Source: a virus
Virus record (IMG/VR): IMGVR_UViG_3300029121_000001
Reading direction: 5' to 3' (one strand)
Length of the DNA stretch: 64,000 nucleotides
In this document: piece by piece, positions 8,952 to 59,018 of the stretch
Layout of the letters: each line of letters opens with the position of its first letter
How positions within the stretch are numbered: the stretch's first letter is position 1
Translations under genes and position numbers: made by a program
The notes under the pieces: model-generated
Told to the model about the DNA's origin: nothing
Databases searched by the model: none
What the model saw: the letters and a program-made list of their open reading frames with translations, nothing else

Positions 8952-9746
8952 TTATTCTCCTTTTTTATAGATAGCCTTATTGTATTCATTAATAATCGTG
9001 GGAGTAGCTTGCGTAATTATATGCTGACAAAGATACCCCGGATCAATACGATATTTACCAATGAAGTCATTAGATGTTTCACATTTCTGATTATAAGGTG
9101 AATGGTAGTACTTTACTAAGATTGCATTAATGAAATATTTTCCCTTTGCTTCCTTAGGCTTAGCTTTAATGCGATCAACATCACATTCTGCAGAATTCTT
9201 TACAACAAGATTTCCATCCGCATCTGTGATATCAATGATGATATAATCATTAGCCACACATACATCATTTGATTTTGCAAAATTAAAGTAGATATTTACA
9301 TCATATTCTGTATTATCAAATGCTGTAATATTGCCACTGAGTAGCATCATAGCAGTAGGCTCAATCATAAAGAAGTCTACTTTAAATTCGCTACAGGTAA
9401 ACATTTCCTTTGCGGAAATCAAATCAAAGTCACTAGTTTCACCAAAGTATCTCTGAAAAGCATCCCTGAAAGTAATGAGGCTGATATTTGCATACTGAGA
9501 AATAGCCTCTTCATATTTCTTTTCTGCATCTTCGATCTTATCGAAGAACCCATATTTATTGCAGTTGAAAATTTCATACCTTTCATATTTAGGATTAGAA
9601 GTAATCTGTTTGTAATACACGATATCATCCAAGACAAGATATTTGCAAATATCCTTGTCAGTATTACTTACCCATTCCTGAAGGGTAATTCTGTGGCCTT
9701 TGACAAGTTTGCGCTTTAGATCTCGAGTTCTAACATCAGAAACCAT
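8952..9746 (-). CDS. hypothetical protein
   Basis: ORF 8952-9755; second ATG (9746) is correctly spaced from AGAAAGGA. Confidence 0.6.
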   Translation of the reverse strand: MVSDVRTRDLKRKLVKGHRITLQEWVSNTDKDICKYLVLDDIVYYKQITSNPKYERYEIFNCNKYGFFDKIEDAEKKYEEAISQYANISLITFRDAFQRYFGETSDFDLISAKEMFTCSEFKVDFFMIEPTAMMLLSGNITAFDNTEYDVNIYFNFAKSNDVCVANDYIIIDITDADGNLVVKNSAECDVDRIKAKPKEAKGKYFINAILVKYYHSPYNQKCETSNDFIGKYRIDPGYLCQHIITQATPTIINEYNKAIYKKGE

Positions 9747-9777
9747 AGTGTACATCCTTTCTGTTTATAAAATATAT

Positions 9778-9814
9778 ATGGTAAAGATATCTTCCTTACC
9801 ATTATTATAATATC
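9778..9814 (-). promoter_or_regulatory. TATTATAA box plus immediate stem-loop
   Basis: Minus strand GATATTATAATAATGGTAAGGAAGATATCTTTACCAT upstream of 8952-9746. Confidence 0.6.
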
Positions 9815-9825
9815 TGCTTAAGTTT

Positions 9826-9874
9826 AAAAATAAAAAATAAATCCCAGTGGGTTTGGGTTTTAACCCACTGGGAT
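9826..9874 (-). terminator. rho-independent terminator
   Basis: atcccagtgggtttgggttttaacccactgggat plus T-run on the minus strand, after 9909-10745. Confidence 0.75.
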
Positions 9875-9908
9875 TATACTATTTATTCAGCTTATTTCTA
9901 TATTCCTT

Positions 9909-10745
9909 TTAGCTCAAAATAGCAATAACGATGCTTGCAATGAAATAATCGATCATGCCTCCATTGAACATCTTGCTGATATGATCTTTTGCCTTATCAA
10001 AAGGCATATCTCCAACAATATCCATGGCCAAACGAACGCTAGTATTATTGTTCTGCATATGGTCATAGATATAATTTGATATCACTGCATAGATAGCATT
10101 GATAATGCTATCGTTAGCGACACCAAACGTATCTCTCAGGATATGATTGATTTCAGGGTCGGAGAGATATGCATTGTATGGGCCCTTCAGTTCAATGCTA
10201 TATCCGTTAACGGAAGGAATAGCACTGAACGTTAAGATCGTGTCATTCCTGTGATTGCTGTTGATGCAGATATCTCCAATGAATTCATATTTGCCATTGT
10301 GGGTATATTCGTTGAAGCGTGCCACATGGATGATATTTGCAACAAAGTTGCAAATATTCACGGATACAAATGTTTCTGCATAGTTCATGGACTTCCACCC
10401 ATAAAATCTGGGTAAGTTGTAATTGAACTCACGGATATAGGAAACATCCTTTTCCGTGTGCTTGTAGTCTGCAACATTCCAATTGAAAATTGCATTCTTG
10501 ATAGCTTCTTCTTCATTGCTAAAACTGAAGAAATAGTTATCGATATTGTTTGCATTTGTATCAGTGCTATTGAGAGATACATAGCAATGCTCCTGATCAA
10601 ATTCAGACTTGAAATTGATCAATTCACCAACGAAAACGGTCTTGAGATGATAATCATCAAAGATGAATTCTTTGAACATCCTAACCTTAATAGTCGGTGC
10701 TGCCATGGTCGCAGCTTTCACCATTTCCATTTTTTCATTACCCAT
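9909..10745 (-). CDS. hypothetical protein
   Basis: 278-aa ORF, AAAGGAGGT RBS, own promoter box and terminator. Confidence 0.65.
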   Translation of the reverse strand: MGNEKMEMVKAATMAAPTIKVRMFKEFIFDDYHLKTVFVGELINFKSEFDQEHCYVSLNSTDTNANNIDNYFFSFSNEEEAIKNAIFNWNVADYKHTEKDVSYIREFNYNLPRFYGWKSMNYAETFVSVNICNFVANIIHVARFNEYTHNGKYEFIGDICINSNHRNDTILTFSAIPSVNGYSIELKGPYNAYLSDPEINHILRDTFGVANDSIINAIYAVISNYIYDHMQNNNTSVRLAMDIVGDMPFDKAKDHISKMFNGGMIDYFIASIVIAILS

Positions 10746-10785
10746 AATTTTAACCTCCTTTATTATGGATCTTAGAAATAATATA

Positions 10786-10834
10786 TTGAAGACAAAGATA
10801 CATTTTCCTTCATCTTCTCATTATTATAATATCC
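10786..10834 (-). promoter_or_regulatory. TATTATAA box plus imperfect stem-loop
   Basis: Minus strand GGATATTATAATAATGAGAAGATGAAGGAAAATGTATCTTTGTCTTCAA upstream of 9909-10745. Confidence 0.55.
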
Positions 10835-10855
10835 AATTGATAATATAAATTTATA

Positions 10856-10897
10856 AAAAAATAAAAGGAGTGGGTTTCATTCACCCACTCCTTTTTT
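10856..10897. terminator. bidirectional-looking terminator
   Basis: aaggagtgggtttcattcacccactcctt flanked by an A-run and a T-run. Confidence 0.7.
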
Positions 10898-10898
10898 A

Positions 10899-12200
10899 TC
10901 ATCCTTCTTTCTTTTTATCAACGTAATCTTTAGGTTTAAACTCTTTATCTTTATTGCGAATATAGTGCTCAACCCAGATTACTTTACCAGATTTGTAGTG
11001 ACGAAAATGTCCCTTGACAGTAACAGCATACTGACAAGGAGTATATTTCCGTTTCTCTTTAGCTTCTGCTTCAGTAACAGGAGTTACTTTCTTAGTAATT
11101 CCATATACTTTATGAGAGCAGATACTAGTTTCAAAGCGAGGTTTATTATTTTCTTTGGGAGTATAGTTACTAGAAGTTTCTATAGATCCAATAACTACAT
11201 CCTTTTTGGAAACGAGTTCTATATGATAAGCCATATATTTCAACACATCAAGCGTGAACATTAGATTTGCATCTTTAAAATTATCTCTTGCATGATCTGT
11301 ATTTATACGTGGATCTATTGGATAGTATTCATAATGACCATATATGCCTTTCTCGTTTTGATATTCATAATCAAGAGTATAATTTGTAACTTTACATATA
11401 CTACCATCTGTATACAGCATATATGCATCAAGATGAATAGTAGATTTTCTTATCATGTTAAATACAATGGCTAATTTTGAATGATAGCAATCATCATTTA
11501 ATTTATCTATATTTTCCTTTCGCATAATATTTATTGTATCTGAAATAATAATACCAGATTTTAAAGGAAATATAGGATTAAGAAGATGCTTTGGATCATA
11601 TCTAATATATTCTCCTGATATTTTGATACGATCAAGTGACATATATTTTTCACCAATATAATCAGTGATAAAATATTGTTTATTAAATCTGTATTCAAGT
11701 ATTCTATGAGGAGTTTTATTTCCTTTTTTACTTGTATTTTTAATATATACAACTTTTTGATTAAAATATTCTGAATGTATAGCAAGAATTTTAAGTTGAA
11801 TAATTATATTTGATACCATGTATTTAATATAATTATTTATTTCTTTTTTACCAGCAATTAAAACTTTTGCATTAGTTATGCGATCAATATTTGTATCAAA
11901 TATATCAGATAGATAATATGTATTTTTATCAATAGATGATTCAATTTTATAATCGCTGCCAATATTAGAACCAACCATAATTGATACTTTTTCATCATCT
12001 AAATATGTAATGATGATAAATGATCTATTCTCAGTAATCGCAACGGTATTTCCAATAAATTGTTGTATACTAGATGAATTAAACAAATATGCAAGTCTAA
12101 CATTATCATCATTAGAATCAATTATTCTATGAAGTAATAATTCTCTATCATTATTTAATCCACCTGAAATAAAAAGTTTATTCATTTTACTGATGTCCAT
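10899..12200 (-). CDS. hypothetical protein (basic C-terminal TVKGHFRHYKSGKVIWVEHYIRN segment)
   Basis: 433-aa ORF, TAAGGAGGT RBS, flanked by terminators. Confidence 0.6.
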   Translation of the reverse strand: MDISKMNKLFISGGLNNDRELLLHRIIDSNDDNVRLAYLFNSSSIQQFIGNTVAITENRSFIIITYLDDEKVSIMVGSNIGSDYKIESSIDKNTYYLSDIFDTNIDRITNAKVLIAGKKEINNYIKYMVSNIIIQLKILAIHSEYFNQKVVYIKNTSKKGNKTPHRILEYRFNKQYFITDYIGEKYMSLDRIKISGEYIRYDPKHLLNPIFPLKSGIIISDTINIMRKENIDKLNDDCYHSKLAIVFNMIRKSTIHLDAYMLYTDGSICKVTNYTLDYEYQNEKGIYGHYEYYPIDPRINTDHARDNFKDANLMFTLDVLKYMAYHIELVSKKDVVIGSIETSSNYTPKENNKPRFETSICSHKVYGITKKVTPVTEAEAKEKRKYTPCQYAVTVKGHFRHYKSGKVIWVEHYIRNKDKEFKPKDYVDKKKEG

Positions 12201-12235: not shown

Positions 12236-12278
12236 TTGATAAAGAAACTATTTGCCTTTATCAATTTTATAATATCTA
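12236..12278 (-). promoter_or_regulatory. TATTATAA box plus immediate stem-loop
   Basis: Minus strand TAGATATTATAAAATTGATAAAGGCAAATAGTTTCTTTATCAA upstream of 10899-12200. Confidence 0.6.
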
Positions 12279-12282
12279 ATTA

Positions 12283-12320
12283 AAATAAATAAAATCCGGA
12301 AGAGATTATACTCTTCCGGA
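12283..12320 (-). terminator. rho-independent terminator
   Basis: tccggaagagattatactcttccgga plus T-run on the minus strand. Confidence 0.7.
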
Positions 12321-12365
12321 ATATTTTATCATTAAAATTGTCTATAGATATATCTTGGTTCTAAT

Positions 12366-12728
12366 TTAATTTTCATTGTTAATTTCCATAAATCCTTTCC
12401 ATGCAGGATTATAATAAATATACATTAATAGAAATGCCATAAAATCTAGTTGACCAATATATTCATAAGGTAATTCTTTTATAATCTCATAAGATTTTTT
12501 ATTATAGCATATTTCATATTTAATCTCTCCAATGATATTATCATCGGCATCTCTAAATACAAAATTATCTAATGTATTTTTATATGTAGTATATTTGCTG
12601 GTATGTCTTTCAATGATACATTTTCTAGTATGCTCATCTTTAATAATACATTCGGCAAATTCTTCTACATAATCTACAGTAGAACATTTATGAAGTTCAT
12701 GTTTAATAGATTTAAGTTGTACTTCCAT
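12366..12728 (-). CDS. hypothetical protein
   Basis: ATG at 12728 (MEVQLKSIKH) preceded by TAAGGAGAA. Confidence 0.55.
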   Translation of the reverse strand: MEVQLKSIKHELHKCSTVDYVEEFAECIIKDEHTRKCIIERHTSKYTTYKNTLDNFVFRDADDNIIGEIKYEICYNKKSYEIIKELPYEYIGQLDFMAFLLMYIYYNPAWKGFMEINNEN

Positions 12729-13395
12729 TTTTATTCTCCTTACTCTTTTCACGAAAAGCATCTACTTTTTCATTTAGAATATTTTCAATAATGTTACCAA
12801 ATGTATCAGTATCATATCCATGCTTTTTAAATACATCATAATTATGAATATAGTTTCCATTTAGATCATAGCATTCAAGTATAAAATTATTAAGTAAATC
12901 TTTTAAATCATCAGCACTTGCTGTATCATAATCATATACAAAAATATACGTATCGCCATCGGCAAATTTCAGAGTTCCGGAATATACGTATTCATTACTA
13001 TCAGCACATTCATTTATAGAAACTTCAATATCATGCTCAATAGTTCCTCTTAACAGATAATATCCATTTGGAATATGAACTTTATCTTTATCTGAATCTA
13101 CATATTTAGGATATTCAAGAAATGCAATGGTATCGGAATCAATATCAATATTATTGATTTCTGTTACCCAATCTGCATAAGTATCAAGAATTTGTTTATA
13201 GTCTTCATTGAAGTTAGAATATCTATCAGCTGCAGAAATTGCAGTAGACGGATAATCTTTAAAGATTTGCTTAATTCCAGGTATGTGAAGATGAACTCTA
13301 TAAGTAGTATATTTTTCAGGTAAACTATACTCCTCTAGGACAACAATATATCCACGAATACTAGAAACCTTAAGTGCTTTAATTTTATATTCCAT
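12712..13395 (-). CDS. hypothetical protein
   Basis: 227-aa ORF with AAAAGGAGT RBS. Confidence 0.6.
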   Translation of the reverse strand: MEYKIKALKVSSIRGYIVVLEEYSLPEKYTTYRVHLHIPGIKQIFKDYPSTAISAADRYSNFNEDYKQILDTYADWVTEINNIDIDSDTIAFLEYPKYVDSDKDKVHIPNGYYLLRGTIEHDIEVSINECADSNEYVYSGTLKFADGDTYIFVYDYDTASADDLKDLLNNFILECYDLNGNYIHNYDVFKKHGYDTDTFGNIIENILNEKVDAFREKSKENKNGSTT

Positions 13396-13807
13396 TTTTT
13401 ATACTCCTTTTAAATTCTTCACAGTTATCAAATAGATCTATACCTCCATATGGATCTTTATAAAATTCTTTTCCTGCATTAAAAATATTATATTCTCTAT
13501 AATCATTTTTAATATCTTTATATTCTGTAATATCATCAATATCTGGAAGATTTTTTAATGCTAAGATTTGATCATTATAATTATTTTCTGCAGCATCTTT
13601 TAATGAAAACTCAGACCTTGTATATATTTTTAGCCAAGGCATATTATGTTCGATTCCCCAATTTGAATTTAAAAAATTTACATGCCCGATACAATATAAT
13701 TCTTTTCCATTTAATGACCATCTTTCTAAGAATATAGCATATCTCTTAATATTTATATGATATGCAAATGCCTTAATAATAGAAATTCTAAGAATATTAT
13801 CTTTCAT
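13385..13807 (-). CDS. hypothetical protein
   Basis: 140-aa ORF with TTAGGAGGT RBS. Confidence 0.6.
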   Translation of the reverse strand: MKDNILRISIIKAFAYHINIKRYAIFLERWSLNGKELYCIGHVNFLNSNWGIEHNMPWLKIYTRSEFSLKDAAENNYNDQILALKNLPDIDDITEYKDIKNDYREYNIFNAGKEFYKDPYGGIDLFDNCEEFKRSIKNGI

Positions 13808-13924: not shown

Positions 13925-15286
13925 TTACTTATTAAATGCTTCTTTTTCTAGATTAAATAGATAATCTGCTTCTTCTTTACCAAGAATATCTACTACCTCA
14001 TTATATGGAAGATTGATCTTCTTAGGTTCAACATCATTTAATTCCATATGCCGTTTATTATAATAATAACAAGATGACAATACTCTACCTTTATGTGCAT
14101 AGCAGATTCCAGTATATCTTTTATTTGCTGTCCCATAAAGTTCGTAATTATATCCAGAACACCAGCCACATCCCTGAGATACTGGGCAAATCATGCATTT
14201 TTCAGGAGATTGAGATTCTCTAGTGATAGAATCTAATTCTTCTTTTATTTTCTTTTCACTATCTCGTTGATAAATGCCATTAAAGCAATCTCCAATACAA
14301 ATTTTAGATGCTTTTTCATCACCAATGGATATAGGCGCATATCTAATACAAGGATATACTTTTCCATCAGGAGCAAATGCAAGCATTGCTCCAGTGCCTC
14401 CACAATAATTTCTTACAGAGATATCAATATCTCCTATATTGTCATTAATCATTGTGATATATCCATTATATTTAGATTTTATCAAATAATTAGATAATTT
14501 CTTTAATTCTGCATATATTTCATTTGCTGTTTTTATTGTATATTCTGGCTCATATGCAAAATTACAATGAATATTCATGCAGCCATTATTTATCATCATC
14601 TTAATAGAATCAGAAATATATTTAATAGACCCAGGAGTAAATGTCATTTTACTATCTATCCAGCCATATTTCTTTTTTCCATCAAGAAAAGCAGCATATG
14701 CTTTTTCAAATGATCCATTTCCGAATTGATCTATTCTATATTTATCATGTAATTCCTGTACCCCATCAATCGATACTGTACATCTTAAAAAATTATGATA
14801 TTTTTTAAATAGGTGTTGAGCATTTGGAGTAAACCATAAAAGTCCATTGGTTGCAAATGAAAATCTTGTAAATGGTGCTAGTGGTATATTTCTTTCTTCA
14901 CATTGGTAAAAATAATAATCGATAATCGATTCAATTAACTTTGCTTCTATCAAAGGCTCGCCACCAATAAAATCGATTATCAATCCTTTAGAAAAATCAC
15001 CAATAAAATCACCATTATTATACATATCTAAAAGTGTATCGACACACTTTCTAGCCGTATAAATGTTCATTGATCCACATTTCTTATTATGCTCATAACA
15101 ATATGAACATCTCAAATTGCATTGATTGGTGACTTGAAATGTTACTGTTCTACATTTAAAATAATTTTCATTGTTATTATTATCATTTCTAAAAATTCTT
15201 TCGATAAATTTAGAATAATCTTCAGATCGTTTAATCACTATATCGTACCTCACGATTTTCAAAATCAAAAATATATTCAATCTCAT
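13925..15286 (-). CDS. radical SAM enzyme with C-terminal SPASM domain (anSME/peptide-maturase-like)
   Basis: CNLRCSYC = CxxxCxxC radical-SAM cluster motif; auxiliary-cluster motifs CGGTGAMLAFAPDGKVYPC and CMICPVSQGCGWC. True start may be GTG at 15238 (GAGG 8 nt upstream, overlaps upstream stop). Confidence 0.8.
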   Translation of the reverse strand: MRLNIFLILKIVRYDIVIKRSEDYSKFIERIFRNDNNNNENYFKCRTVTFQVTNQCNLRCSYCYEHNKKCGSMNIYTARKCVDTLLDMYNNGDFIGDFSKGLIIDFIGGEPLIEAKLIESIIDYYFYQCEERNIPLAPFTRFSFATNGLLWFTPNAQHLFKKYHNFLRCTVSIDGVQELHDKYRIDQFGNGSFEKAYAAFLDGKKKYGWIDSKMTFTPGSIKYISDSIKMMINNGCMNIHCNFAYEPEYTIKTANEIYAELKKLSNYLIKSKYNGYITMINDNIGDIDISVRNYCGGTGAMLAFAPDGKVYPCIRYAPISIGDEKASKICIGDCFNGIYQRDSEKKIKEELDSITRESQSPEKCMICPVSQGCGWCSGYNYELYGTANKRYTGICYAHKGRVLSSCYYYNKRHMELNDVEPKKINLPYNEVVDILGKEEADYLFNLEKEAFNK

Positions 15287-16133: not shown

Positions 16134-16700
16134 TTAATTCAACCAAAATTTAGCATTTCCACAGGATCCACCACAATCTGCAGTACAATTACCTCCATCA
16201 CAATTTTCATAGCATGCTCCCATACAATTACCACTCATAAGTTGGCTAGCACATGCTACGTCACACATACCATCACAGCTTCCGCTGCAACCACCACTAC
16301 AGCCACTACAGCCACTATAGCATCCTGTATAGCACAATCCACTGCAGCTAGATTTACATCCTGTATCTGCCCTAGATGATGCTGTAACAGATTTAGAACT
16401 TAAACTAGAAACTGTACTAGTAGCAGTTGTGATTTGATTAGCATAAACAATAGTATCTGTATTAGGAGTTAATTTGCCTCCATTTACAGCATCTAGTGGA
16501 TTAGTAATCTTTTGAATGTGCTCTAGTTTTATATTTTTGCCTTTTGCAGGTGTAATAGTATAATCATATGAAGTTCCATTATAGGATTTCATACTTCCAA
16601 CACTTGCTGAATTTGATCTACGCGTAATCTCCGATTTTACAAGTTTCTTAAGTGCAGTAAAATCACTAGCACTAATTAATCCACCTTTATTAGTAGCCAT
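16134..16700 (-). CDS. tail-fibre-associated protein with CXXX-repeat cysteine-rich C-terminus
   Basis: ATG at 16700 with AAGGAG RBS. C-terminus GCKSSCSGLCYTGCYSGCSGCSGGCSGSCDGMCDVAC...NCMGACYENCDGGNCTADCGGSC has 16 Cys in about 75 aa, mostly spaced C-x3-C. Confidence 0.7.
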   Translation of the reverse strand: MATNKGGLISASDFTALKKLVKSEITRRSNSASVGSMKSYNGTSYDYTITPAKGKNIKLEHIQKITNPLDAVNGGKLTPNTDTIVYANQITTATSTVSSLSSKSVTASSRADTGCKSSCSGLCYTGCYSGCSGCSGGCSGSCDGMCDVACASQLMSGNCMGACYENCDGGNCTADCGGSCGNAKFWLN

Positions 16701-16707
16701 AATTATA

Positions 16708-17649
16708 TTACTCCTTTCCAATAATAATTCTTACTTTATGAATATTATTATTACTATTAGAAGATTCTATTACTCTGCCTACAGATAGATTAGAATATTC
16801 TTTACTAGACTTTCCAACTCCAGGAATATCAGAAGGGATAATATAATCTCCAATATCTACATTACCAATACACTTTACATATACACGTCCACATAATCCT
16901 ATGGGAATATATTTCTTAATATTCTTAGAAATATAATCATCTCCAGTATCTACTGTTTCTCCACCAATAATCATAGCATATTCATCAGAATGAACTCCTG
17001 CAATAATACTACTTTTATTAGTAGCTTTAATATATTTCTCTTCTTTATTATTTTCATCTAATGCAATAATATCTCCAGGTTCTGTATATTCTCCTCTAGG
17101 GAAGAACTCTGCATAGTCATTATATACAGCACCATAACATTTACTAAATTTTGCTACACCATTTTTATCTACATAATAACTAGCACTACCAAAATTAATA
17201 GTACCAGTCATTGTTCCTCCTGCTATAGGAAGATAAGCGTCATTTAGCGAAGTCAGAGTCTGATTCATAGAATAGATCAGAGCAGAGGTAGGAATGTAGT
17301 CATTGGAGTTAACTTGAGTACTAGAAGTAGGTAGTTGAGCAACCTTATGAGAGTGATTAGAAGGTGCTTTGCCATCAATTTGGCCCTTAACAGTAGAGCC
17401 AGTAGAGAAGCCAGTACCAAGAACATTGTACAGATAGCGGACATTTTTTGCCATCTGAGTAATCTTAGTAAAGATACTAGCATGGTTATCGGAAGTAGTA
17501 ATTTGACCTACATTAGTCCAAGATGTTGCACTTGCTTGGGCAACATCGCTAGAAGAGAATCCACCAGTACCTGTAGTAAGAGTACCAGTAGGGGAAGGAG
17601 ATATGTCGTAAGACGTAGATCCTACCTTAATATGATCAACATTAGCCAT
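16708..17649 (-). CDS. tail fibre protein with C-terminal autoproteolytic/chaperone-like domain
   Basis: LPIAGGTMTGTINF tail-fibre motif; C-terminal GLCGRVYVKCIGNVDIGDYIIPSDIPGVG resembles the phi29 gp12-type (Peptidase_G2) intramolecular chaperone domain. Confidence 0.7.
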   Translation of the reverse strand: MANVDHIKVGSTSYDISPSPTGTLTTGTGGFSSSDVAQASATSWTNVGQITTSDNHASIFTKITQMAKNVRYLYNVLGTGFSTGSTVKGQIDGKAPSNHSHKVAQLPTSSTQVNSNDYIPTSALIYSMNQTLTSLNDAYLPIAGGTMTGTINFGSASYYVDKNGVAKFSKCYGAVYNDYAEFFPRGEYTEPGDIIALDENNKEEKYIKATNKSSIIAGVHSDEYAMIIGGETVDTGDDYISKNIKKYIPIGLCGRVYVKCIGNVDIGDYIIPSDIPGVGKSSKEYSNLSVGRVIESSNSNNNIHKVRIIIGKE

Positions 17650-17751
17650 ATTTTTTAGTTTCCTTTCTCTAAATTTACCTGTTTTGGCTTGATTTTGAGT
17701 AACTATTTTAAAAAAGAAATTGCGGGGTGATCATAAAGACCACACCGAATA

Positions 17752-17904
17752 AGATCTTAAACGTAGCCTTCAATAAAATAAATTCAACGAAACCTTCAAA
17801 TTATCTGACGCTTCTTATAGTCTTCAATTACAATGGATAAATCTGTATATCGAAATCTTCAAAACATTTTAACGAATCGTTCATTCATTTTAACGCAATC
17901 TTCA
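17752..17904. repeat. six direct copies of a 12-mer (minus-strand TTGAAGRTTTCG), iteron-like array
   Basis: Plus-strand copies cgtagccttcaa 17752, cgaaaccttcaa 17778, tagtcttcaa 17818, cgaaatcttcaa 17851, cgaatcgttca 17873, cgcaatcttca 17894; followed by a nearly pure AT stretch 17905-17975. Confidence 0.6.
17804..17872 (+). other. short plus-strand cassette remnant starting at an inverted copy of the junction core
   Basis: tctgacgcttct at 17804-17815 opens SDASYSLQLQWINLYIEIFKTF*; no start codon. Confidence 0.4.
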
Positions 17905-17979
17905 TTATCATATTGTTACATATTTTTAAATTAAAAATGATATTATATGAAACATATACTAAATAAGATATAAAAATAT

Positions 17980-18009
17980 GAGGGTAGAAATCGTCAAATT
18001 TCTACCCTC
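17980..18009. terminator. strong stem-loop (gagggtagaaa/tttctaccctc)
   Basis: 11-bp perfect stem seen directly; followed by tandem ccattttag ccattttag. Confidence 0.5.
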
Positions 18010-18099
18010 TAAATACCCCATTTTAGGCCATTTTAGAGGCGTTTGGCAGATTTCTCAGACTACTTCGTAATAGCGTCATATTATTTAAAAAATAATAAA

Positions 18100-18137
18100 A
18101 ATAAAAAGAAAAGCCAATAGAGATTTCTCTCTATTGG
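18100..18137 (-). terminator. rho-independent terminator after cassette A
   Basis: Hairpin ccaatagagatttctctctattgg plus T-run on the minus strand. Confidence 0.7.
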
Positions 18138-18145
18138 TTTATAAT

Positions 18146-18373
18146 TTAAATATAGACAATGTTTGCATGATAATCTGTATTACCAGATACTGCACTATCA
18201 GAGTAGTGATTTATGTATTTGCAATATAATTTTCCATTTTCTTTACAAACCTAGTAGATTGTACTGCCGTATGTACTTAAATTCAATAATTCATATCCAA
18301 TCATTATATCATTTAATTTATATCCTTTAGTATCAATATAAATATTATTAAGTCTTTTTATAGAAGCGTCAGA
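18146..18373 (-). other. start-less ORF cassette A (type I, SDASIKRL...), with in-frame TAG
   Basis: Begins at junction core 18361-18375. Reads SDASIKRLNNIYIDTKGYKLNDIMIGYELLNLSTYGSTIY*VCKENGKLYCKYINHYSDSAVSGNTDYHANIVYI*; TAG at 18251-18253. Homologous to cassette D along its whole length. Confidence 0.6.
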
Positions 18374-18379
18374 TTGCTA

Positions 18380-18676
18380 TTATATAGAAATATAATAAAT
18401 ATTTATGGTTCCAACCATAGGTGATCTAATAAATGTAAAATTATTACTATTATTAATTTTACATGAATAAAATAAATAAATAATAAATCTTTCATTTGTA
18501 GATGTATATTGTGAATGTGCTACATTTACTAATATCATCGTAATATTGTCAGTCGTATCTGGAATTGCATTAATTAGATACTCACTAGAATAATCTGTTG
18601 AAGTCATTTTCACTTCAATCATATATGTATTATTTATACTCTGAGTTCGCTGCTTAATTTTAGTAGAAGCGTCAGA
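18380..18676 (-). other. start-less ORF cassette B (type II, SDASTKIK...)
   Basis: Begins at junction core 18664-18678 immediately after an in-frame TAA and a terminator. 98 codons ending INIYYISI*; no RBS, and the first in-frame ATG is 19 codons in. Confidence 0.6.
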
Positions 18677-18683
18677 TTAATAG

Positions 18684-18722
18684 AAAAAAAAATAAAGAGG
18701 AAGTAGTTTTATCTACTTCCTC
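18684..18722 (-). terminator. rho-independent terminator of 18731-19576, immediately upstream of cassette B
   Basis: Hairpin gaggaagtag...ctacttcctc followed on the minus strand by TTTATTTTTTTTT. Confidence 0.75.
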
Positions 18723-18730
18723 TTTTACAT

Positions 18731-49621: not shown

Positions 49622-50592
49622 TATGCATTCTCCCCTCCGATTCTAAGTAGCTCATTAGTGAAGTTAAGAACAGTTTTACTACCAGCAACTTTTTCAATAG
49701 TATTCTGCTGATTAATAAATGCACCATTATAACAGTCTGTCAGTATCTGAGAAAAAGGTACAAAGCATTCTAGACCAAGGAAAGTACTAGGGCCATATGC
49801 ATACATCCATCGCTGAACAAAAGAATCAACTGTAAGCTTAGCTCTATTCTTAGGGCTTATAGATCCTTCTTTTTGATCAAGAAATACTTCTGCAAATTTC
49901 ATAAGGAATTGATTAAAGTCAGCTGCTCCATCTTCAAATGTAAAAGAAAATAGTGTATGTAGATAGTCACAAACCTTTTTATCTTTAATGCCAGAAATTT
50001 GTTTTGCTACATTATAAATTGTTTCTCCAGGAGCAACACCTTCTACGCATAGCAAATAATATTCTGCTAGAACAAAAGACATTCTTTCCTTATTATCAGC
50101 ATAAGTAATAGGCACTTTAAGATATCCAAATACATAGAGCATCATATCTGCAAATGCTCCAGCACCATTCTTCATTAGAGTTACACTGCCAGTAATTAGC
50201 TTAGGATTATTATAGTATATAATATAAGTCATAGCAGCTGTCAAATAAGATATAAGAACTCCAACTTTCTTACACTTATAAACGCCATTTTCAATAGAAA
50301 TAATTCCAGAGCAATCGATAAATACTTTCTTTACATCTTTATCTTCTTTGATATCTTTTACATAGATTACCTTAAATGCTCTAGAAATTCCATTCTCTCT
50401 TACCATTAAAACAACTTTGTTGCTCAATAGAACCTTTAATAGAACTGAAGTAGCCTGTTGCTTAACCGCATAAACTATATCTTGAAAACTAGAGTTATTC
50501 TTATCTACTCGATCAGCTTCCATAAGGTATTTAAAAATTTCCTTATTATAATCGGTGACCTTATATAGATAAGAGTCAGATATTGCCTTCAT
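49621..50592 (-). CDS. hypothetical (probable structural) protein
   Basis: 323-aa ORF, GTGGAGGG RBS. Confidence 0.6.
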   Translation of the reverse strand: MKAISDSYLYKVTDYNKEIFKYLMEADRVDKNNSSFQDIVYAVKQQATSVLLKVLLSNKVVLMVRENGISRAFKVIYVKDIKEDKDVKKVFIDCSGIISIENGVYKCKKVGVLISYLTAAMTYIIYYNNPKLITGSVTLMKNGAGAFADMMLYVFGYLKVPITYADNKERMSFVLAEYYLLCVEGVAPGETIYNVAKQISGIKDKKVCDYLHTLFSFTFEDGAADFNQFLMKFAEVFLDQKEGSISPKNRAKLTVDSFVQRWMYAYGPSTFLGLECFVPFSQILTDCYNGAFINQQNTIEKVAGSKTVLNFTNELLRIGGENA

Positions 50593-50679
50593 AATCGGCC
50601 CTCCACTATATTAATTTATATTGATGTTTAATTTTGAAGAAATAACCACTACTTGGATATCCAAGTAGTGGTTATTATT

Positions 50680-51297
50680 TTACGGTAAAACAACAGTTGT
50701 CTTATCAATATAAGCCTTATTAGCTGCATCTGCAGACATAGCAGCTGTAGTTACATATAGGCTATCAAAGTATATAGTTGCACCAGTATCAGGTAGAACA
50801 ATTAGTTCAATCTTAATCATATAAGATCCAGTAGCAGATCCCTTGAAATCAACAGTATGTCCAAGACTTACATACTTATTTGCAGTTCTAATCTGATCTC
50901 CATTAATTGTTTGAGTATCAATCTTAGTTTCCTTAGGATTAGTTGCAGAAGTATCCACAAAATAGGTATTAATTTCAAGTAGATTCTGAACACCAGATGC
51001 AATAGAAGACTTAATACGATAAACAATAGAAGTATTTCCAAAAGGAATATTAGCAATCTTTGTAGAAAATAGAATCTTTCTTACACTAGATGAACTTACA
51101 ATAATAGACTCACCATTATTTGCATCTCCATCAGCTGTCTTGATTCCTTCTGTATGAGTATTATCATTTTTATCTGTCGAAGCATTAGTAGAATCTAATA
51201 CTATTCCACCACCAGAATTTTCAGATGTTCCAATAGGGAAATATCTATTTCCTTGCCAGTCTTCGATTCTTATATGTCGATTTTCAATTTTGGCCAT
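50680..51297 (-). CDS. hypothetical (probable tail/baseplate) protein
   Basis: 205-aa ORF, AAAGGAGAC RBS, directly downstream of the large tail fibre gene. Confidence 0.6.
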   Translation of the reverse strand: MAKIENRHIRIEDWQGNRYFPIGTSENSGGGIVLDSTNASTDKNDNTHTEGIKTADGDANNGESIIVSSSSVRKILFSTKIANIPFGNTSIVYRIKSSIASGVQNLLEINTYFVDTSATNPKETKIDTQTINGDQIRTANKYVSLGHTVDFKGSATGSYMIKIELIVLPDTGATIYFDSLYVTTAAMSADAANKAYIDKTTVVLP

Positions 51298-51355
51298 AAT
51301 GAATCGTCTCCTTTAATTAGAAATTTAAATCAAATCTTTTATTATCATGTTTTGA

Positions 51356-54300
51356 TTACATTATTATATCTGCTGTAATAACTAGATCAGTATTTGTATC
51401 GATATAGCCATCATCATTAGGTAATAGAGATTGAGTAGGAGCTTCATATTCAGCACTAGTACCAGTAAGATCAAGAACATTATTACCATACAAACTGTAA
51501 ATATGAACAGGGCTAGCATAATATCCAGCAGGTAGAATAATATCATTACCAGCAACTATTCTAAGTTTAGAAGTGGTATATGTAGGTATATTGCCTGTAA
51601 TCTTTTGGCCATTAACCCAAGCAGTCTTAGGAGCAAGTATATCAGAAGATGTAGCATCAGATACTGTTTGTTCTGCTAGAGATTGTGTAGAAATAATACC
51701 AGATCCATTATGGAATCCACTAGGAACAGTAATTTGAACTCCAGCAGGTATTTCCAATTCAGACCAGTCCATATTATTAGGCATGGTACCGATAACTTTT
51801 TTACCATTAACCCATGCAGTCTTTGCTGTGAGAATATTATATGCAATTGCAGTACCATCTGTTTGACTAGAAAGATCTTTCAAAACAATCTTTCCATTAC
51901 CATCATGATATCCCTTAGGAATAGCAATAGTAGAACCTGCTGTAACATCATCTTTTCCAAAACCAGTATTATCAGGCATAGTGCCCGTAATCTTTTTACC
52001 ATTAACCCAAGCTGTTTTATTAATCAAAAGATTAGCAGATACAGCATCAGATACTGTTTGTTCTGCTAGAGCCTGAGTAGTAATAGTACCATATCCAGAA
52101 TAATAGCCTTCAGGAATTTGAACAGTAGTTCCGGCTGCTAGATTGATAAAAGAAGTAGAACTCTTATTAGGCATTGTACCATCTACTTTTTTACCATTAA
52201 CCCAAGCGGATTTACTAATCAAAATATCATTAGCTGTAGCATCTGCTTTTGTTTGTGTAGCTAGGTCAACAGCAGATACAATAGATTTACCACTATGATA
52301 TCCAGCAGGAATTGTATAAGAATCTCCAGCATATAGAGAAGTCATTGTATCGGGAGATTGATACATTGTACCAATAAGCTTCTGCTTAAGATTATCACTA
52401 TAGAATGTAACTCCAGAAACTACTTTATCTGCTGTAGCATTACCGGTTAATTCCAAAGTGCCAACAACTTTTTCACCGTTAACCCATGCAGTAGATCCTT
52501 TGACAATATCATCAGCAGATGCAGTGCCAGAAGTCTGTCCTCCTAATCCTTTTGCAGTAATAACACCAGATCCATCATGATATCCCTTAGGAATCTTATA
52601 TGATTCATTTGCTTCTAGTGTAGCAGACACAGCACCATTATTAGGCATTGTACCAACTATCTTAGCCTTAGGATTTGTACTATAGAAAGTTTTATCTTCT
52701 AGAACATTCTCAGATTTTGCAGATCCAGTAAAAGTAAGTGAACCAACTTGTTTCTTCTTAGGATCTGTAGTATAGAATGTAGAGCCAGCAACTACATCAT
52801 CAGATAGAGCATTGCCAGTAAGTGCAAGAGTACCAGTTCTCTTAGTCTTTGAATCAATATTGTAGAAAGTCTTTCCTACTAATACATCATCAAGAGCTGC
52901 ACTACCTGTCAATTCAAGTGTGCCTGTTACCTTTTTACCATTCACCCAAGCTGTTCTATTTTTTAGAATATCAGTATTATCTGCATTGGCTATTGTCTGA
53001 GAAGCTAGATCTTTAGATATAATAATACCAGATCCATTATGATATCCTTTAGGAACAGTATAAGATTCTCCTGCTAGTAGAGTAGAAGATACAGCACCAT
53101 TATTAGGCATTGTACCATCTACCTTTTTACCATTAACCCATGCATTCTTAGTAATAAGAATATCAGGAGATGTAGCATTAGCTTGAGTATAATCAGATAG
53201 AGGTTTTACCCAAACATTACCAGTACCATCATGATATCCTTTTTTAATTTCATAAGATTCGCCAGGACCAATAGTTACAGAAGATCCTCCATTGTTAGGC
53301 ATAGTGCCAACAATCTTTTTGCCATTAACCCAAGCAGAAGATCCTTCTAGAATAGAGTCAGAAGTTGCTGTACCAACAGTTTCAGAAGAAAGTGTTTTTG
53401 CTTTTACTTTTCCATTACCAGTATGAAATCCTTTAGCAATATCAAATATTTCTCCTTCACCAAGTTCAACAACTTTAGGATCAATCATTGGTACAGTACC
53501 AACAATCTTTTGACCATTAACCCAAGCAGTTCTATCTGCAACGAGTGAATCTGGAGTAGCACTACCAACAGTAGCATCTTTTAAAGATTGAACTTTGATT
53601 GTTGTGCGTCCAGAATAATATCCCTCGGGAATAGTAAATGTAACACCATTTCTAAGAATCCTTTCAGGATCATTACTGTGATCTGGCATAGTACCAGATC
53701 GTACTTCTGCATATACAGAAGAATAAAAATTCTTACCACTCAGAACCTGATTCTGAGTAGCATTTGTAGTTTTTAAATATTCTTTTGTATTTTGTGCAAT
53801 ATCGAATGTACCAACAATCTTTTGACCATTAACCCAGGCTATTTGTCCTTTAATAATTTGACTAGACAAAGCATTGCCTACAGTTTGAGATGCTAGATCT
53901 GCAGCTGAAATAACTGTAGTACCAGCAGATAATCCATAAGGAAAAGTATAAGACTCTCCTGCAAGAAGATTCTTATCTTTTCTAGGTAATTTAGGAATAG
54001 TACCAGTAACTTTTTTGCCATTAACCCATGCTGTTCTAGGAGAAACAATATCAGAAGCAGTAGCATCTGCTTCTTGAGTAGCTTGTTTAATATCAAGAGT
54101 ACCGGTAACCTTCTTACCATTTACCCAGAATGTCTTAGTATTGATAACATCAGCAGCTGTTGCTGTGCCAGGTGTATACTCACTAAGATCTCCTACATAT
54201 ACAGATCCTGTTCCATCATGATATCCACGTGGAATGATATATCTATTATTAGTATGGCCATCATACTTAGGATCTATCTTTATCTTTTCTGCAGTATTAA

Positions 54301-54529
54301 GAGGCATTGTACCTACCAATACATCTCTTGTTACTGCATCTTTATATGCATATTTATCTTTAACTGACGATGGAGTAGCAATAGATTCGTCAGGCTCTTG
54401 TTGTGCTAATGCATCAAGATTGTTTGCACTAGATGTATCAAAATACATTTTGCCAGCCATATGTTGATCCAACTCCTCTCCTTTAATAATATTAATATAA
54501 TGTGCGAAAGCTCCTAAGTTCAACTTCAT
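51356..54529 (-). CDS. large tail fibre protein built of about 17 tandem repeats
   Basis: Repeated [ST]AWVNG[KQ]K[IV].GTMPN...AGESY.IP.GYH.GSG units plus short TFY..D.K.K..GTL variants. ATG 54529 lacks an RBS; the alternative ATG at 54460 follows AAAGGAGAGGAG. Confidence 0.75.
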   Translation of the reverse strand: MKLNLGAFAHYINIIKGEELDQHMAGKMYFDTSSANNLDALAQQEPDESIATPSSVKDKYAYKDAVTRDVLVGTMPLNTAEKIKIDPKYDGHTNNRYIIPRGYHDGTGSVYVGDLSEYTPGTATAADVINTKTFWVNGKKVTGTLDIKQATQEADATASDIVSPRTAWVNGKKVTGTIPKLPRKDKNLLAGESYTFPYGLSAGTTVISAADLASQTVGNALSSQIIKGQIAWVNGQKIVGTFDIAQNTKEYLKTTNATQNQVLSGKNFYSSVYAEVRSGTMPDHSNDPERILRNGVTFTIPEGYYSGRTTIKVQSLKDATVGSATPDSLVADRTAWVNGQKIVGTVPMIDPKVVELGEGEIFDIAKGFHTGNGKVKAKTLSSETVGTATSDSILEGSSAWVNGKKIVGTMPNNGGSSVTIGPGESYEIKKGYHDGTGNVWVKPLSDYTQANATSPDILITKNAWVNGKKVDGTMPNNGAVSSTLLAGESYTVPKGYHNGSGIIISKDLASQTIANADNTDILKNRTAWVNGKKVTGTLELTGSAALDDVLVGKTFYNIDSKTKRTGTLALTGNALSDDVVAGSTFYTTDPKKKQVGSLTFTGSAKSENVLEDKTFYSTNPKAKIVGTMPNNGAVSATLEANESYKIPKGYHDGSGVITAKGLGGQTSGTASADDIVKGSTAWVNGEKVVGTLELTGNATADKVVSGVTFYSDNLKQKLIGTMYQSPDTMTSLYAGDSYTIPAGYHSGKSIVSAVDLATQTKADATANDILISKSAWVNGKKVDGTMPNKSSTSFINLAAGTTVQIPEGYYSGYGTITTQALAEQTVSDAVSANLLINKTAWVNGKKITGTMPDNTGFGKDDVTAGSTIAIPKGYHDGNGKIVLKDLSSQTDGTAIAYNILTAKTAWVNGKKVIGTMPNNMDWSELEIPAGVQITVPSGFHNGSGIISTQSLAEQTVSDATSSDILAPKTAWVNGQKITGNIPTYTTSKLRIVAGNDIILPAGYYASPVHIYSLYGNNVLDLTGTSAEYEAPTQSLLPNDDGYIDTNTDLVITADIIM
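51530..54170 (-). repeat. coding tandem repeats (about 180-nt and 60-nt units) inside the tail fibre gene
   Basis: Recurring plus-strand ccattaacccaagc/ccattaacccatgc (reverse of GCTTGGGTTAATGG) roughly every 180 nt. Confidence 0.8.
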
Positions 54530-54569
54530 AGTAATTTAGAGACATTTCCATACAGGGAGGTAAAACATT

Positions 54570-55883
54570 ATGCCCTTTACTGATTCTATTAATATCGTAA
54601 ATGTAGTTGTTACAGATAGATCTTTACTAAATGCTACACCTTCTGATGTTGCACAAGGTAAACAATTTATTGGTTCTACTCAGCATGTAGAAACAGGTAC
54701 AGTTCCTGTAAATAATCCTATCTCTGATATGACACTTCCTGCTGGTAGTACTCTTACAGTACCTTATGGTATCAATCCCAAACAATTTACTATCACTGCA
54801 CAAAGTATTGGAAGTGTAACTGCTGATGCAGATGCTACAGATGAAGACATCCTATGGGGAAAGACTGCTTGGGTTAATGGCCAAAAAATAAAAGGAGCTA
54901 TGCCTAACATTGGAGCAGAAAATGATATTATCCTATGTGATAACGTTCATACTATCTCTAGAGGATATCATGATGGCAATGGTGTTATTAGAGCCGAATC
55001 TCTAATGAAACAAACTCCTGCTTCAATTGTAGCTAAAGATATCATTGTTGGCTCTACATGTTGGGCAAATGGTAAGAAGATTACAGGAACAATGCCTGTA
55101 ATTAAAGATAATAGTGTTACTCGTGCATTGTATGCAGGAGAATCTTATACAGTTCCTGAAGGATATCACAGTGGTAAAGCTGTAATAAGTGCTGCTTCTC
55201 TAGCATCTCAAACTGGTGGTAATGCTATACCTGAAACCATTATTGAAGGATATACTGCTTGGGTTAATGGTCAGATGGTTAATGGTACAATTAAAAAGAT
55301 TAATCCAGAAAAAATTACTCTAGAAACTAATAAAACTTATTATATTCCTGCTGGATATCATACAGGAAAAGGATATGTAACTCAAAATGTTCCTAATATG
55401 GATGGTCAAACTGTTGCTCCTGGAAAGGATGCTCAGACCATTGAATGTGGCGGTTACTACATGAATAGTGATATTATTATTTCTGGAGTAGATGCTCTAA
55501 ATTATAGATTTCTCAATAATGATCCAGTAATAAATTCTTCTAATAAAGAGATTACTAATTATAATCTTACAGTAGAAAATAATTATGCTAGTGTTAAAGT
55601 CAATGTCGATAACTGGCATGATAATGCTACATTAAATGTATATAATTTGATATTTGATAATCTAATTGATTCTAATGGTAATAGAGTTAATCTAAATACC
55701 ACAGTTGTATTTAACTGGAAAGATCAATCCACAAATATTTATACATTAGGAAATATCACCATTGGTACTAAATATGAAGAAAATACTAATGCTCATATGA
55801 TCATTATTGGTGGTATTAAGAGTGGTATTCTAACTATGACTGAAGTTTTCTCTGCTCGTCAATTTGGTGTTATAAAAGAATAA
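54570..55883 (+). CDS. second tail fibre protein with the same repeat type (about 4 copies)
   Basis: TAWVNGQKIKGAMPN, TCWANGKKITGTMPV, TAWVNGQMVNGTIKK; AGGGAGGT RBS; divergent from 51356-54529. Confidence 0.7.
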   Translation: MPFTDSINIVNVVVTDRSLLNATPSDVAQGKQFIGSTQHVETGTVPVNNPISDMTLPAGSTLTVPYGINPKQFTITAQSIGSVTADADATDEDILWGKTAWVNGQKIKGAMPNIGAENDIILCDNVHTISRGYHDGNGVIRAESLMKQTPASIVAKDIIVGSTCWANGKKITGTMPVIKDNSVTRALYAGESYTVPEGYHSGKAVISAASLASQTGGNAIPETIIEGYTAWVNGQMVNGTIKKINPEKITLETNKTYYIPAGYHTGKGYVTQNVPNMDGQTVAPGKDAQTIECGGYYMNSDIIISGVDALNYRFLNNDPVINSSNKEITNYNLTVENNYASVKVNVDNWHDNATLNVYNLIFDNLIDSNGNRVNLNTTVVFNWKDQSTNIYTLGNITIGTKYEENTNAHMIIIGGIKSGILTMTEVFSARQFGVIKE

Positions 55884-55885
55884 AA

Positions 55886-55916
55886 TTTGGGAGTAGGATT
55901 TTATCCTACTCCCATT
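55886..55916. terminator. bidirectional terminator between convergent genes
   Basis: gggagtaggattttatcctactccc. Confidence 0.7.
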
Positions 55917-55919
55917 TGT

Positions 55920-56318
55920 TTACTTAATCTTATTCAGAAGACAATTAATAGTTGCATATAGAGTATAAGATAGCTTAGGTACTGTACCATTTACAGTATA
56001 TTTATAATGTGCTTTAATGCTTTCTTTAGCATTATTAAGAGTTTTTAATATATCATCTTTTAGATTATATCCATCATCTATCCATACCATATTTGTTTCT
56101 CTAAAATATGTACTACATAATTTTGTAAATCCTCTGGAAATTGCATATGCATCAATAGTCTCATTGTCAATCTCTACTCTAGGAGTTTCAATAGCAGTGA
56201 ACATATCACTCGTTGTTGAAATAAAAATTCCTAGTGATTCAATATACAAGAGATAGCAATACTTGTTATAATCTGCATATAGATCATTATAATAGATTCT
56301 TATATTCATATTATTCAT
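55920..56318 (-). CDS. hypothetical protein
   Basis: 132-aa ORF, AAGAGGT RBS. Confidence 0.55.
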   Translation of the reverse strand: MNNMNIRIYYNDLYADYNKYCYLLYIESLGIFISTTSDMFTAIETPRVEIDNETIDAYAISRGFTKLCSTYFRETNMVWIDDGYNLKDDILKTLNNAKESIKAHYKYTVNGTVPKLSYTLYATINCLLNKIK

Positions 56319-56412
56319 TAATATTACCTCTTATTAAATACTAGGTGATGGATTATCTATATGTTTTGTACCAGAAAAACATCCTTATAAACTTATAAAG
56401 GAGGTAACCACG

Positions 56413-57606: not shown

Positions 57607-57623
57607 AGGAGAAAGAAGTAACT

Positions 57624-58367: not shown

Positions 58368-58370
58368 AAA

Positions 58371-58415
58371 AAAAATAAAACCGGTAGAGGATTAAATCCT
58401 CTACCGGTCTTTTTA
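58371..58415. terminator. bidirectional terminator closing cassette locus 2 and gene 57624-58367
   Basis: ccggtagaggattaaatcctctaccgg flanked by an A-run and a T-run. Confidence 0.75.
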
Positions 58416-58774: not shown

Positions 58775-58780
58775 ATGCTT

Positions 58781-59014: not shown

Positions 59015-59018
59015 TTAT

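Follow-up and report, generated by a model that had tools for sequence, protein, structure and literature searches.

A predicted library of silent C-terminal cassettes for a tail fibre in a gut jumbo phage

The tips of the tail fibres largely set the host range of a phage, and the only routes known to us by which such tips are varied on demand are diversity-generating retroelements (DGRs) and small invertible segments with two to seven alternatives. The stretch of DNA considered here, a window of 64,000 nucleotides (IMG/VR record IMGVR_UViG_3300029121_000001), is part of the 259,028-bp contig of a gut phage with a genome of ~259 kb, a virulent-type jumbo phage with genes for a multisubunit RNA polymerase. 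Beside a tail-fibre gene on the minus strand of this window, short open frames devoid of any start codon are lined up in tandem, each of them opening at the same short junction sequence. What are these cassettes, and how might a gene make use of coding sequence that cannot be translated on its own? As judged from sequence comparison, the first part of the question can be considered settled, in that the cassettes are established as stored alternative C-termini of the adjacent fibre gene. For the second part, the explanation to which we assign a probability of roughly 70% as a whole is that a unit carrying the beginning of the fibre gene has been recombined at the heptamer TGACGCT before one cassette while the other cassettes stay silent.

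The 15-nt core AATCTGACGCTTCTA that opens the cassettes is found in two exact minus-strand copies at the first array (locus 1), at 18664-18678 before cassette B in an attB-like context and at 18361-18375 before cassette A, as the sequence-only reading of this stretch had placed them. With up to two mismatches allowed, the window holds four matches versus 0.16 expected, a number reached in 0 of 100 shuffles; the fourth match, again exact, lies at 59002-59016 at the head of a second array (locus 2). Five copies of the 9-mer GACGCTTCT are present in the window, all of them in a core or junction context, and the invariant part of the core is TGACGCTTCT. Both direct copies at locus 1 follow directly upon in-frame stops (TAA; TAA-TAG-CAA) and open frames without an ATG, GTG or TTG start and without a Shine-Dalgarno sequence, which had equally been recognized before. 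Read along the minus strand, locus 1 consists of the end of a 281/309-aa gene, its terminator, core and cassette B, TAA-TAG-CAA, core and cassette A, a terminator T1 (18114-18137, minus strand, kept in the related L119 and L164; L numbers denote related genomes and contigs fetched for comparison, P numbers related proteins), a core-like AATATGACGCTATTA (18068-18082), a conserved block, a terminator T2, an AT-rich spacer, an inverted core, a hairpin with T-run, a ribosome binding site (RBS) and finally the 313-aa fibre gene.

Cassette B (18380-18676, minus strand) opens at the junction with TCTACTAAAATT and reads SDASTKIKQRTQ…INIYYISI* over 98 codons plus TAA. It indeed follows right after the terminator and T-run of the upstream gene, as the array starts 15 nt past the 13-bp stem (18694-18725, minus strand), and the probability of 98 open codons at this composition is 2.6e-4 (stop probability 0.081 per codon). 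Cassette A (18146-18373, minus strand; opening TCTATAAAAAGA) had been taken for an intact frame of 75 codons, which does not hold, as codon 41 is an in-frame TAG (18251-18253) followed by 34 further codons in frame until TAA. Stop-codon recoding was considered as an explanation and rejected, as genes of the window that end with TAG have no long open frames behind them and as the matching codon is TGG in the related genome L164, where cassette A is intact; TAG acting as a normal stop in the window, the interruption is regarded as a nonsense mutation. At locus 2, on the minus strand throughout, a terminator with T-run (59017-59065) stands just before the first cassette, the core at 59002-59016 opens the silent cassette L2_A (58781-59016, 77 codons), and the core variant ATAATGACGCTTCTA (58762-58776) opens the silent cassette L2_B (58514-58776, 86 codons). 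All four window cassettes and the junction in the fibre gene are in direct orientation. The gene upstream of locus 2 (59100-59459, minus strand) is one open reading frame (ORF) of 111 aa in L122 and L123 and is interrupted by TGA in the window; in L124 an unrelated 140-aa gene and another first cassette are found at this position, with the terminator stem retained.

An expressed gene with the junction in frame had been suggested to lie outside the window. It is, however, the next gene downstream of the locus-1 cassettes, the 313-aa fibre gene (16708-17649, minus strand), which contains the junction behind …SLNDA| and reads …SMNQTLTSLNDA|YLPIAGG… across the junction sequence CTAAATGACGCTTATC. 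A constant N-terminal part of 138 codons (414 nt; 17236-17649, minus strand) ends at the attR-like in-frame junction AAATGACGCTT (17235-17245, minus strand), in which TGACGCT at 17236-17242 is the predicted crossover heptamer, and is continued by the currently expressed module C167 (YLPIAGGTMTG…IIIGKE*; 16708-17235, minus strand). In related genomes C167 is itself found as a silent cassette, called as ORFs of 164-169 aa. It is weakly similar to Peptidase_G2 (21.9 bits, cut-off 25), and several homologues carry PF11962 in precomputed annotation.

With the 138-aa N-terminus as query, 85 proteins, mostly of 205-242 aa, were retrieved from a collection of 5.8 billion, and the related fibres consist of this N-terminus, then (S)(I/T/L)K, then one module of 60-100 aa ending in I.YI. 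The constant part is 80-98% identical across 59 proteins bearing differing C-termini; in the homologue of L119, a 271-kb IMG/VR contig, identity is 85% over residues 1-138 and the sequence is unrelated past NDA, with the junction reading SLNDASNK. From their first residue on, all four window cassettes align with the C-termini of such fibres, the best matches lying at 36-54% identity: cassette B end to end with P0007, P0041 and P0026 (47-52%), cassette A with ten expressed fibres (44-54%; P0015, P0021, P0016, P0012, P0020, P0045, P0036, P0055, P0044 and P0002), L2_A with P0002 (51%) and L2_B with P0011 (36%). The shared start and end noticed in the first cassettes extend to 70 distinct silent cassettes of the fetched loci, which begin with (S/N)DAS(I/T)K, end with I.YI*, keep TGACGCTTCT invariant or nearly so in a constant reading frame and have a median of 93 open codons, at least 60 open codons having a probability of 0.006 in each. 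Together with 63 fused modules these cassettes form 133 modules in 44 families, 14 of which have both silent and fused members; one of them, an SDATKNFG module whose members fall into a single cluster at 90% identity, occurs in fused form in P0342 and in silent form in P0340, P0341, P0343 and P0344. It is because full-length homologues are fused to the N-terminus and because families are shared between the silent and the fused state that the cassettes are considered stored C-termini, and the earlier suggestion that they are versions of a single small C-terminal domain, exchangeable for one another, is thereby borne out. In AlphaFold models of eight A-type fibres a helix (residues 121-137) directly precedes the junction, which is followed by a beta domain of seven strands, with a block-mean predicted local distance difference test score (pLDDT) of 67-88 for the module and a whole-model mean of 51.9, the N-terminus being poorly modelled; a Foldseek comparison of the fibre model with the PDB gave nothing below E=0.35 and no fold was matched. 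The modules are probably receptor-binding tips.

The constant part of the fibre gene belongs to a larger segment, an expression unit of 836 bp (17236-18071, minus strand), counted from the base after GACGCT of its left end, core', to the end of the junction GACGCT. TGACGCT borders this unit on both sides, and its contents are, in order of reading, conserved block, T2, spacer, inverted core and upstream region, followed by the RBS and codons 1-138 of the fibre gene; in L119 the unit has ~945 bp, and units range from 0.84 to 0.94 kb. At the attL-like left end, AATATGACGCT|ATTACGAAGTAGTCTGAGAAATCTGCCAAA (18042-18082, minus strand), the 38 nt from TGACGCT on (…ATTACGAAGTAGTCTGAGAAATCTGCC…) are identical in 12 units with coding parts that differ by 5-20%, and two further A(A/G)TCTG motifs in this block are candidate protein-binding sites. 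A conserved RNA is a conceivable alternative for this block, but the folding of the core' block is mostly due to its terminator, so that no small RNA is claimed. The stem sequence of T2 (17980-18009, minus strand) is lineage-specific, with the hairpin kept in both lineages. Some 60 nt ahead of the RBS of the fibre gene, the hairpin CGGTGTGGTC-TTTAT-GATCACCCCG with its T-run (17709-17747, minus strand), near-identical in the L119 lineage, may constitute a regulatory or promoter-region element, and the upstream region of the unit would hold the promoter.

The related genome L164 (ERZ28658480 scaffold_29) has the unit in a different position. Its locus 1 carries the same genes, B, A and T1, and then AATAATTTGACGCT|TATCTTC… with C167 silent, which is an exact empty site. 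In the window a left junction AATAATATGACGCT|ATTACGAAG… and a right junction …CTAAATGACGCT|TATCTTCC…C167 are present instead, with 836 nt between them, while the flanks are otherwise collinear and the synonymous divergence (dS) of DHFR is 0.06. L164 and L134 are the same 257,858-bp contig, and the unit is found there ~100 kb from locus 1 in opposite orientation, behind a 258-aa gene near the prohead-protease gene and fused to a different module. Overall, the unit is found at five array sites in related genomes. The first is an array adjacent to fib1, a paralogous fibre gene, where the unit precedes a long module targeted by a DGR (L119, L156 and L160; in L137 the long module is silent and this site is without unit). 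The second is the S77-protease (prohead protease) locus (L133 and L134), at which L144-L146 and L165-L174 have silent cassettes only, or none. The third is locus 1 of the window, the fourth follows an SDATKNFG module (L159 and L161), and the fifth is locus 2 of the window, occupied in L155 (94.6% identity to window positions 50172-62561). In one assembly, two equally covered contigs (161x and 164x; sum 259.5 kb) contain the core' block only once, along with silent cassettes numbering at least 23, and one unit together with many cassettes appears to be present per genome.

The joints themselves are informative. The four junction types (attB-, attL-, attR- and attP-like) share TGACGCT only, and this heptamer is in a constant reading frame everywhere, so that each exchange would yield an in-frame fusion. 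The overlap region typical of tyrosine recombinases is 6-8 bp, which the length of the heptamer fits. Equally, the cassettes among themselves share only the core of 10-15 nt at the 5' edge, the 3' palindrome not being conserved, and neither a core nor any other homology is found 3' of the expressed module. Of the earlier proposal that the cassettes are donors for recombinational replacement of a C-terminus, DNA recombination at the junction is thus retained, and conversion of the pilS/vls type is not, as the junctions have TGACGCT alone in common. The attP-like junction is seen in L135, a 1085-bp k141 contig with the same 141 nt at both ends and therefore a 944-bp circle or a tandem repeat, which corresponds exactly to the unit with its ends joined as …SLNDA|ITK* (CTAAATGACGCT|ATTACGAAG).

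On this basis we propose that loci 1 and 2 are arrays of silent, promoter-less and start-less C-terminal modules for one tail-fibre protein, served by a single expression unit per genome. Conservative site-specific recombination inside TGACGCT, the heptamer that opens every cassette in frame, would set the unit before one cassette, the chosen cassette would be translated as N-terminus plus (S)(I/T)K…I.YI*, and the rest would remain silent behind terminators. In the window the unit would be positioned at the third core of the series B–A–C167, with C167 expressed and B and A silent. The unit would relocate via excision as a circle and subsequent re-integration, a route favoured by the contig that is either a circle or a tandem repeat and by the exactness of the empty and the occupied site. 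Switching might take place during infection and not solely over evolutionary time, and the modules might determine receptor specificity. A bolder and more detailed version, which we hold only tentatively and would rather bet against than for, sees in the unit a minicircle-forming 'first exon' (0.84-0.94 kb, 138 codons) without a recombinase of its own, which an Xer-like enzyme excises and re-integrates at dozens of 7-bp cores in at least five arrays, such that each progeny phage would show one of ~25 or more tips, an integron inside out.

A candidate enzyme is encoded in relatives. In L119, L132 and L137 a tyrosine recombinase of 324-329 aa is encoded at a distance of two genes on the upstream side of fib1 with its cassette array. 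It matches Pfam Phage_integrase (1e-39) and, among NCBIfam models, the XerA type best (3e-65, 220 bits), then XerC and XerD; with the NCBIfam models for integron integrases it reaches 103 and 66 bits, the cut-offs being 265 and 435, and invertase models stay far below their cut-offs. Its linkage to an array and its enzyme family suggest that this Xer-like recombinase acts on the cores. The genome of the window presumably encodes such a recombinase outside the window, because related genomes of the same size (258-260 kb) with a silent C167 also carry fib1, e.g. P0019, P0072 and P0092 (258,193-bp longest contig). The earlier statement that no recombinase is recognizable nearby is accordingly true for the window and does not extend to relatives, where the enzyme is found beside another array.

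The surroundings of this recombinase gene deserve a description of their own. Always between the recombinase gene and fib1, a CxxC-rich protein of 399-408 aa without family match is encoded (L119 6871-8079; L132 7928-9154; L137 8682-9881), a candidate accessory DNA-binding factor. The fib1 gene is intact in L132 (789 aa; 9280-11649), is further present in L119 (8209-9047) and L137 (10001-11835), and is split after …YAGGG in very many assemblies, the P0071 cluster alone having 121 members; a frameshift in the G-run, sequencing error, phase variation or programmed frameshifting could be behind the split. In the 1374-bp contig L136 a fib1-like upstream region with the first ~35 codons is joined to an N-terminus of the unit type, ending NDAITK* and leading into the core' block, which indicates that fib1 and unit copies have recombined with each other. 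A DGR stands beside the fibre gene of L119 (10001-13767), with a reverse transcriptase gene (12481-13767; RVT_1, GIGNQTSQ/HMDD), a template repeat (TR) near 12252-12491 and, as variable repeat (VR), the 3' end of a 419-aa fibre gene; the same long module is silent in L137 (13641). As the module targeted by the DGR is also a silent cassette, one stored tip can additionally be hypermutated. Around locus 1 of the window neither a reverse transcriptase nor a TR/VR pair was seen. The arrays themselves have been rearranged besides the unit, as is evident from the differences between L133 and L134: a 450-bp segment that lies upstream of the unit in L134 (9133-9579) is found between two near-identical LKTMT cassettes in L133 (9495-11326), where a 33-bp stretch is also duplicated.

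Several observations weigh against the proposed relocation of the unit. A tblastn search of the 64-kb window revealed no recombinase gene, and its presence in the genome of the window rests on related genomes of the same size. The junction of the circle or tandem repeat is represented by a single contig, and an attP-type junction of the unit ends was sought in IMG/VR and not found. All states of the unit stem from separate samples or assemblies, which makes switching within a population something that we infer from comparison. A JGI contig of the window's strain, which we count in favour of relocation, ends at ~18072 and ~17243, where the unit has its two boundaries, and lacks 948 bp of the length of the ENA contig; such assembly breaks could, however, derive from several related strains in one sample and not from rearrangement. 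The dN/dS of silent cassettes, 0.5-2.2 with small counts, fits relaxed constraint or diversifying selection alike. Finally, the inverted core has no role in the proposed mechanism although it is conserved. It had been noticed beforehand at 17803-17815 and lies, as TATCTGACGCTTCTT with two mismatches (13/15) to the cassette-type core, on the plus strand at 17802-17816. It is kept in the compared units (13 distinct contexts assigned to the class of short or inverted stubs), the ORF stub that follows it not being kept; the inversion that this core had been thought to permit has no counterpart in the form of inversion isomers among the fetched loci. The inverted core could permit the upstream region, together with the N-terminus, to adopt an OFF or flip state. 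P0056, an N-terminus with an odd 27-aa tail on a 912-bp contig, was tried as a product of inversion at this core and gave no convincing match.

This inverted core counts in favour of the strongest competitor, in which the same parts and the same recombinase act as in a shufflon: pairs of inversions between opposite cores would move the unit or the cassettes, and no circle would be formed. We regard this as a realistic alternative, although clearly the less probable one. Two nested inversions would, by reasoning, produce exactly the observed end state, and opposite orientations do exist, since cassette arrays occupy both strands of related genomes (L119, 16701-18499 on the minus strand versus 18647 on the plus strand; also L137 and L159) and since the DHFR array and the unit at the S77 locus of scaffold_29 are oriented oppositely. 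Kindred systems such as Rin, R64 Rci, vsa/HvsR and Vpma/Xer1 equally use inversion (PMC6109161, PMC2268961). On the other hand, the cores within each window array are all direct, and no assembly showed the required intermediate, be it a large inverted segment or a unit flanked by old sequence on one side and new sequence on the other. Moreover, the 944-bp circle or tandem repeat arises when direct repeats recombine, an outcome that an enzyme restricted to inversion should avoid. A previous model of our own, with an invertible module of promoter and N-terminus flipped by two local inversions, was dropped given the precise empty site and the dispersed sites.

Considerably less probable, and in our view improbable, is that no programmed system exists at all and that the cassettes are relics of occasional illegitimate or homologous recombination between co-infecting phages at a domain boundary, of no use to the genome carrying them. 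Phages commonly exchange fibre tips as modules at conserved motifs, as in gp37/gp38 of the T-even phages, and the nonsense mutation in cassette A, the high dN/dS of the cassettes and the origin of all variant states from different samples would be compatible with such a history. It would, however, hardly account for 70 distinct cassettes that start exactly at TGACGCTTCT in the same frame and remain open over improbable lengths. Nor would it explain why both unit ends break at the same 7 bp at five loci that offer no flanking homology for homologous recombination, why a 38-nt block remains 100% conserved across lineages with far more divergent coding parts, why a single unit faces at least 23 cassettes and why a recombinase gene is linked to an array. 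Joining on the level of RNA or translation (splicing, trans-splicing or ribosomal bypass), or independent autocleaving chaperone domains of the S74 type, both raised by the sequence-only reading, can be virtually dismissed, for although SDAS(I/T)K has an S-x4-K spacing reminiscent of the Ser-Lys dyad of S74 and the inverted core, which precedes the start of the fibre gene on the coding strand, might conceivably base-pair with the cores of cassettes if it were part of the fibre mRNA, the fusions are contiguous in DNA in dozens of assemblies and render splicing or bypass unnecessary, the cassettes lie behind terminators and those of locus 1 upstream of the fibre gene, Rfam finds no family in the whole window, four cassettes and four fused fibres have neither a Pfam S74 nor any other Pfam match at E<=10, and the predicted module is small and all-beta and not a helical S74 chaperone.

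Among the neighbouring genes, the one right after the fibre gene (16134-16721, minus strand) encodes a 188-aa protein with an extremely Cys-rich C-terminus (…CSGLCYTGCYSGCSGCSGGCSGSCDGMCDVAC…), and two genes past it a radical-SAM enzyme is encoded (13925-15286, minus strand; phrog_1802, 2.8e-57); the two may represent a peptide-maturation pair tied to the fibre locus. In L137 (15310-17968) an HNH endonuclease gene (HNH_3, NUMOD4) directly follows a fragment of an RNA polymerase beta'-like gene; it possibly represents a homing element by which the polymerase gene is split. Searches beyond the fetched relatives remained without result. The DNA of locus 1 has zero matches in 50,697 GenBank phage records, a 20-nt pattern of cassette A has 0 matches in IMG/VR, and the neighbourhood of locus 1, sought in IMG/VR via a 197-aa neighbour protein, was not found there; a scan of IMG/VR with the 14-nt core gave at least 118 matches, mostly due to chance and uninformative. 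The core' block is absent from the GTDB genomes searched and gives no clue to the host, and no description of the present fibre-tip system was found in the open-access literature.

If the proposed recombination of the unit is true, a gut jumbo phage would possess a stored library of dozens of tips, one of which is shown at a time as determined by the position of the unit; the scale of the library in the fetched loci and proteins is 44 sequence families, with at least 23 silent copies in one genome. The logic of antigenic variation in bacteria and parasites would then be realized in a virus, and the breaks of metagenome assemblies at these fibre loci would be explained. Furthermore, a core of 7-10 bp, an armless Xer-like recombinase and short beta-domain modules might potentially serve as a toolkit for the programmable swapping of receptor-binding domains.

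How does this arrangement compare with systems already described? Among phages, the nearest precedent is the Rin shufflon of Bifidobacterium prophages, in which a constant Rc and start-less Rv segments are combined at 11-bp asymmetric repeats by an armless XerD-like recombinase (PMC6109161). Shared with Rin are the encoding by a phage, the constant N-terminal part with start-less variable C-termini and the short repeat before each segment. Rin is, however, one compact locus beside its recombinase with predicted inversions, whereas here direct tandem cassettes form at least five dispersed arrays, the constant part together with its upstream region makes up a discrete relocating unit of 0.84-0.94 kb, and the recombinase is far from most arrays. 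Shufflons more generally (R64 Rci, p15B Min, Rin) have a constant N-terminus, start-less C-termini and an in-frame 5' crossover site in common with the present loci; inverted segments among the window cassettes and inversion isomers among the fetched loci were not found. The invertible segments of Mu Gin, P1 Cin, p15B Min and R64 Rci likewise choose alternative C-terminal parts at an in-frame crossover and thereby alter host or recipient specificity. They do so by inversion among 2 to 7 alternatives per segment, and in the case of Gin, Cin and Min the enzyme is a serine invertase that uses 26-bp sites and an enhancer, whereas the window has neither a serine invertase nor an inverted cassette pair.

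Neisseria pilE/pilS and Borrelia vlsE resemble the present case in that one expressed gene draws on silent start-less cassettes. There, non-reciprocal copying of the RecA type operates with homology on both sides and leaves the donors unchanged, whereas here the junctions are reciprocal, the core has 7 bp and homology on both flanks is not found, being absent on the 3' side. Integrons equally display arrays of promoter-less cassettes, a single promoter platform, a tyrosine recombinase of the Xer/IntI branch and circles formed from direct sites. Their cassettes move and their platform (attI, Pc, intI) is fixed, while here it is the start-bearing unit that is seen to move; and integron cassettes are complete genes with a folded attC, in contrast to gene fragments with a plain core of 7-10 bp. 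Neither an IntI-type integrase nor complete ORFs with attC were found in the present system.

In logic, the closest system is vsa of Mycoplasma pulmonis (M. pulmonis), in which HvsR places a single expression site with promoter, RBS and the first 714 nt before silent 3' genes (PMC2268961). Together with vpma of M. agalactiae and vsp of M. bovis (Xer1, Mbr), it shares with the present loci silent 5'-truncated genes, an in-frame site within the coding region and an Xer-like enzyme nearby (here beside one array of relatives), and the combination of a single expression site with many silent 5'-truncated genes is found here as one unit with at least 23 cassettes in 259.5 kb. The 5' coding region amounts to 714 nt in vsa and to 414 nt here. 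The mycoplasma systems concern bacterial surface lipoproteins with demonstrated inversions in one locus, whereas a viral fibre with dispersed direct arrays is encountered here, together with evidence for a precise insertion or excision of the expression unit, and the mechanism proposed above would apply. Considered together, the features that set the present system apart from its precedents are the scale and dispersal of its arrays, the direct orientation of its cassettes, the discrete relocating constant unit and the setting in a phage of ~259 kb.

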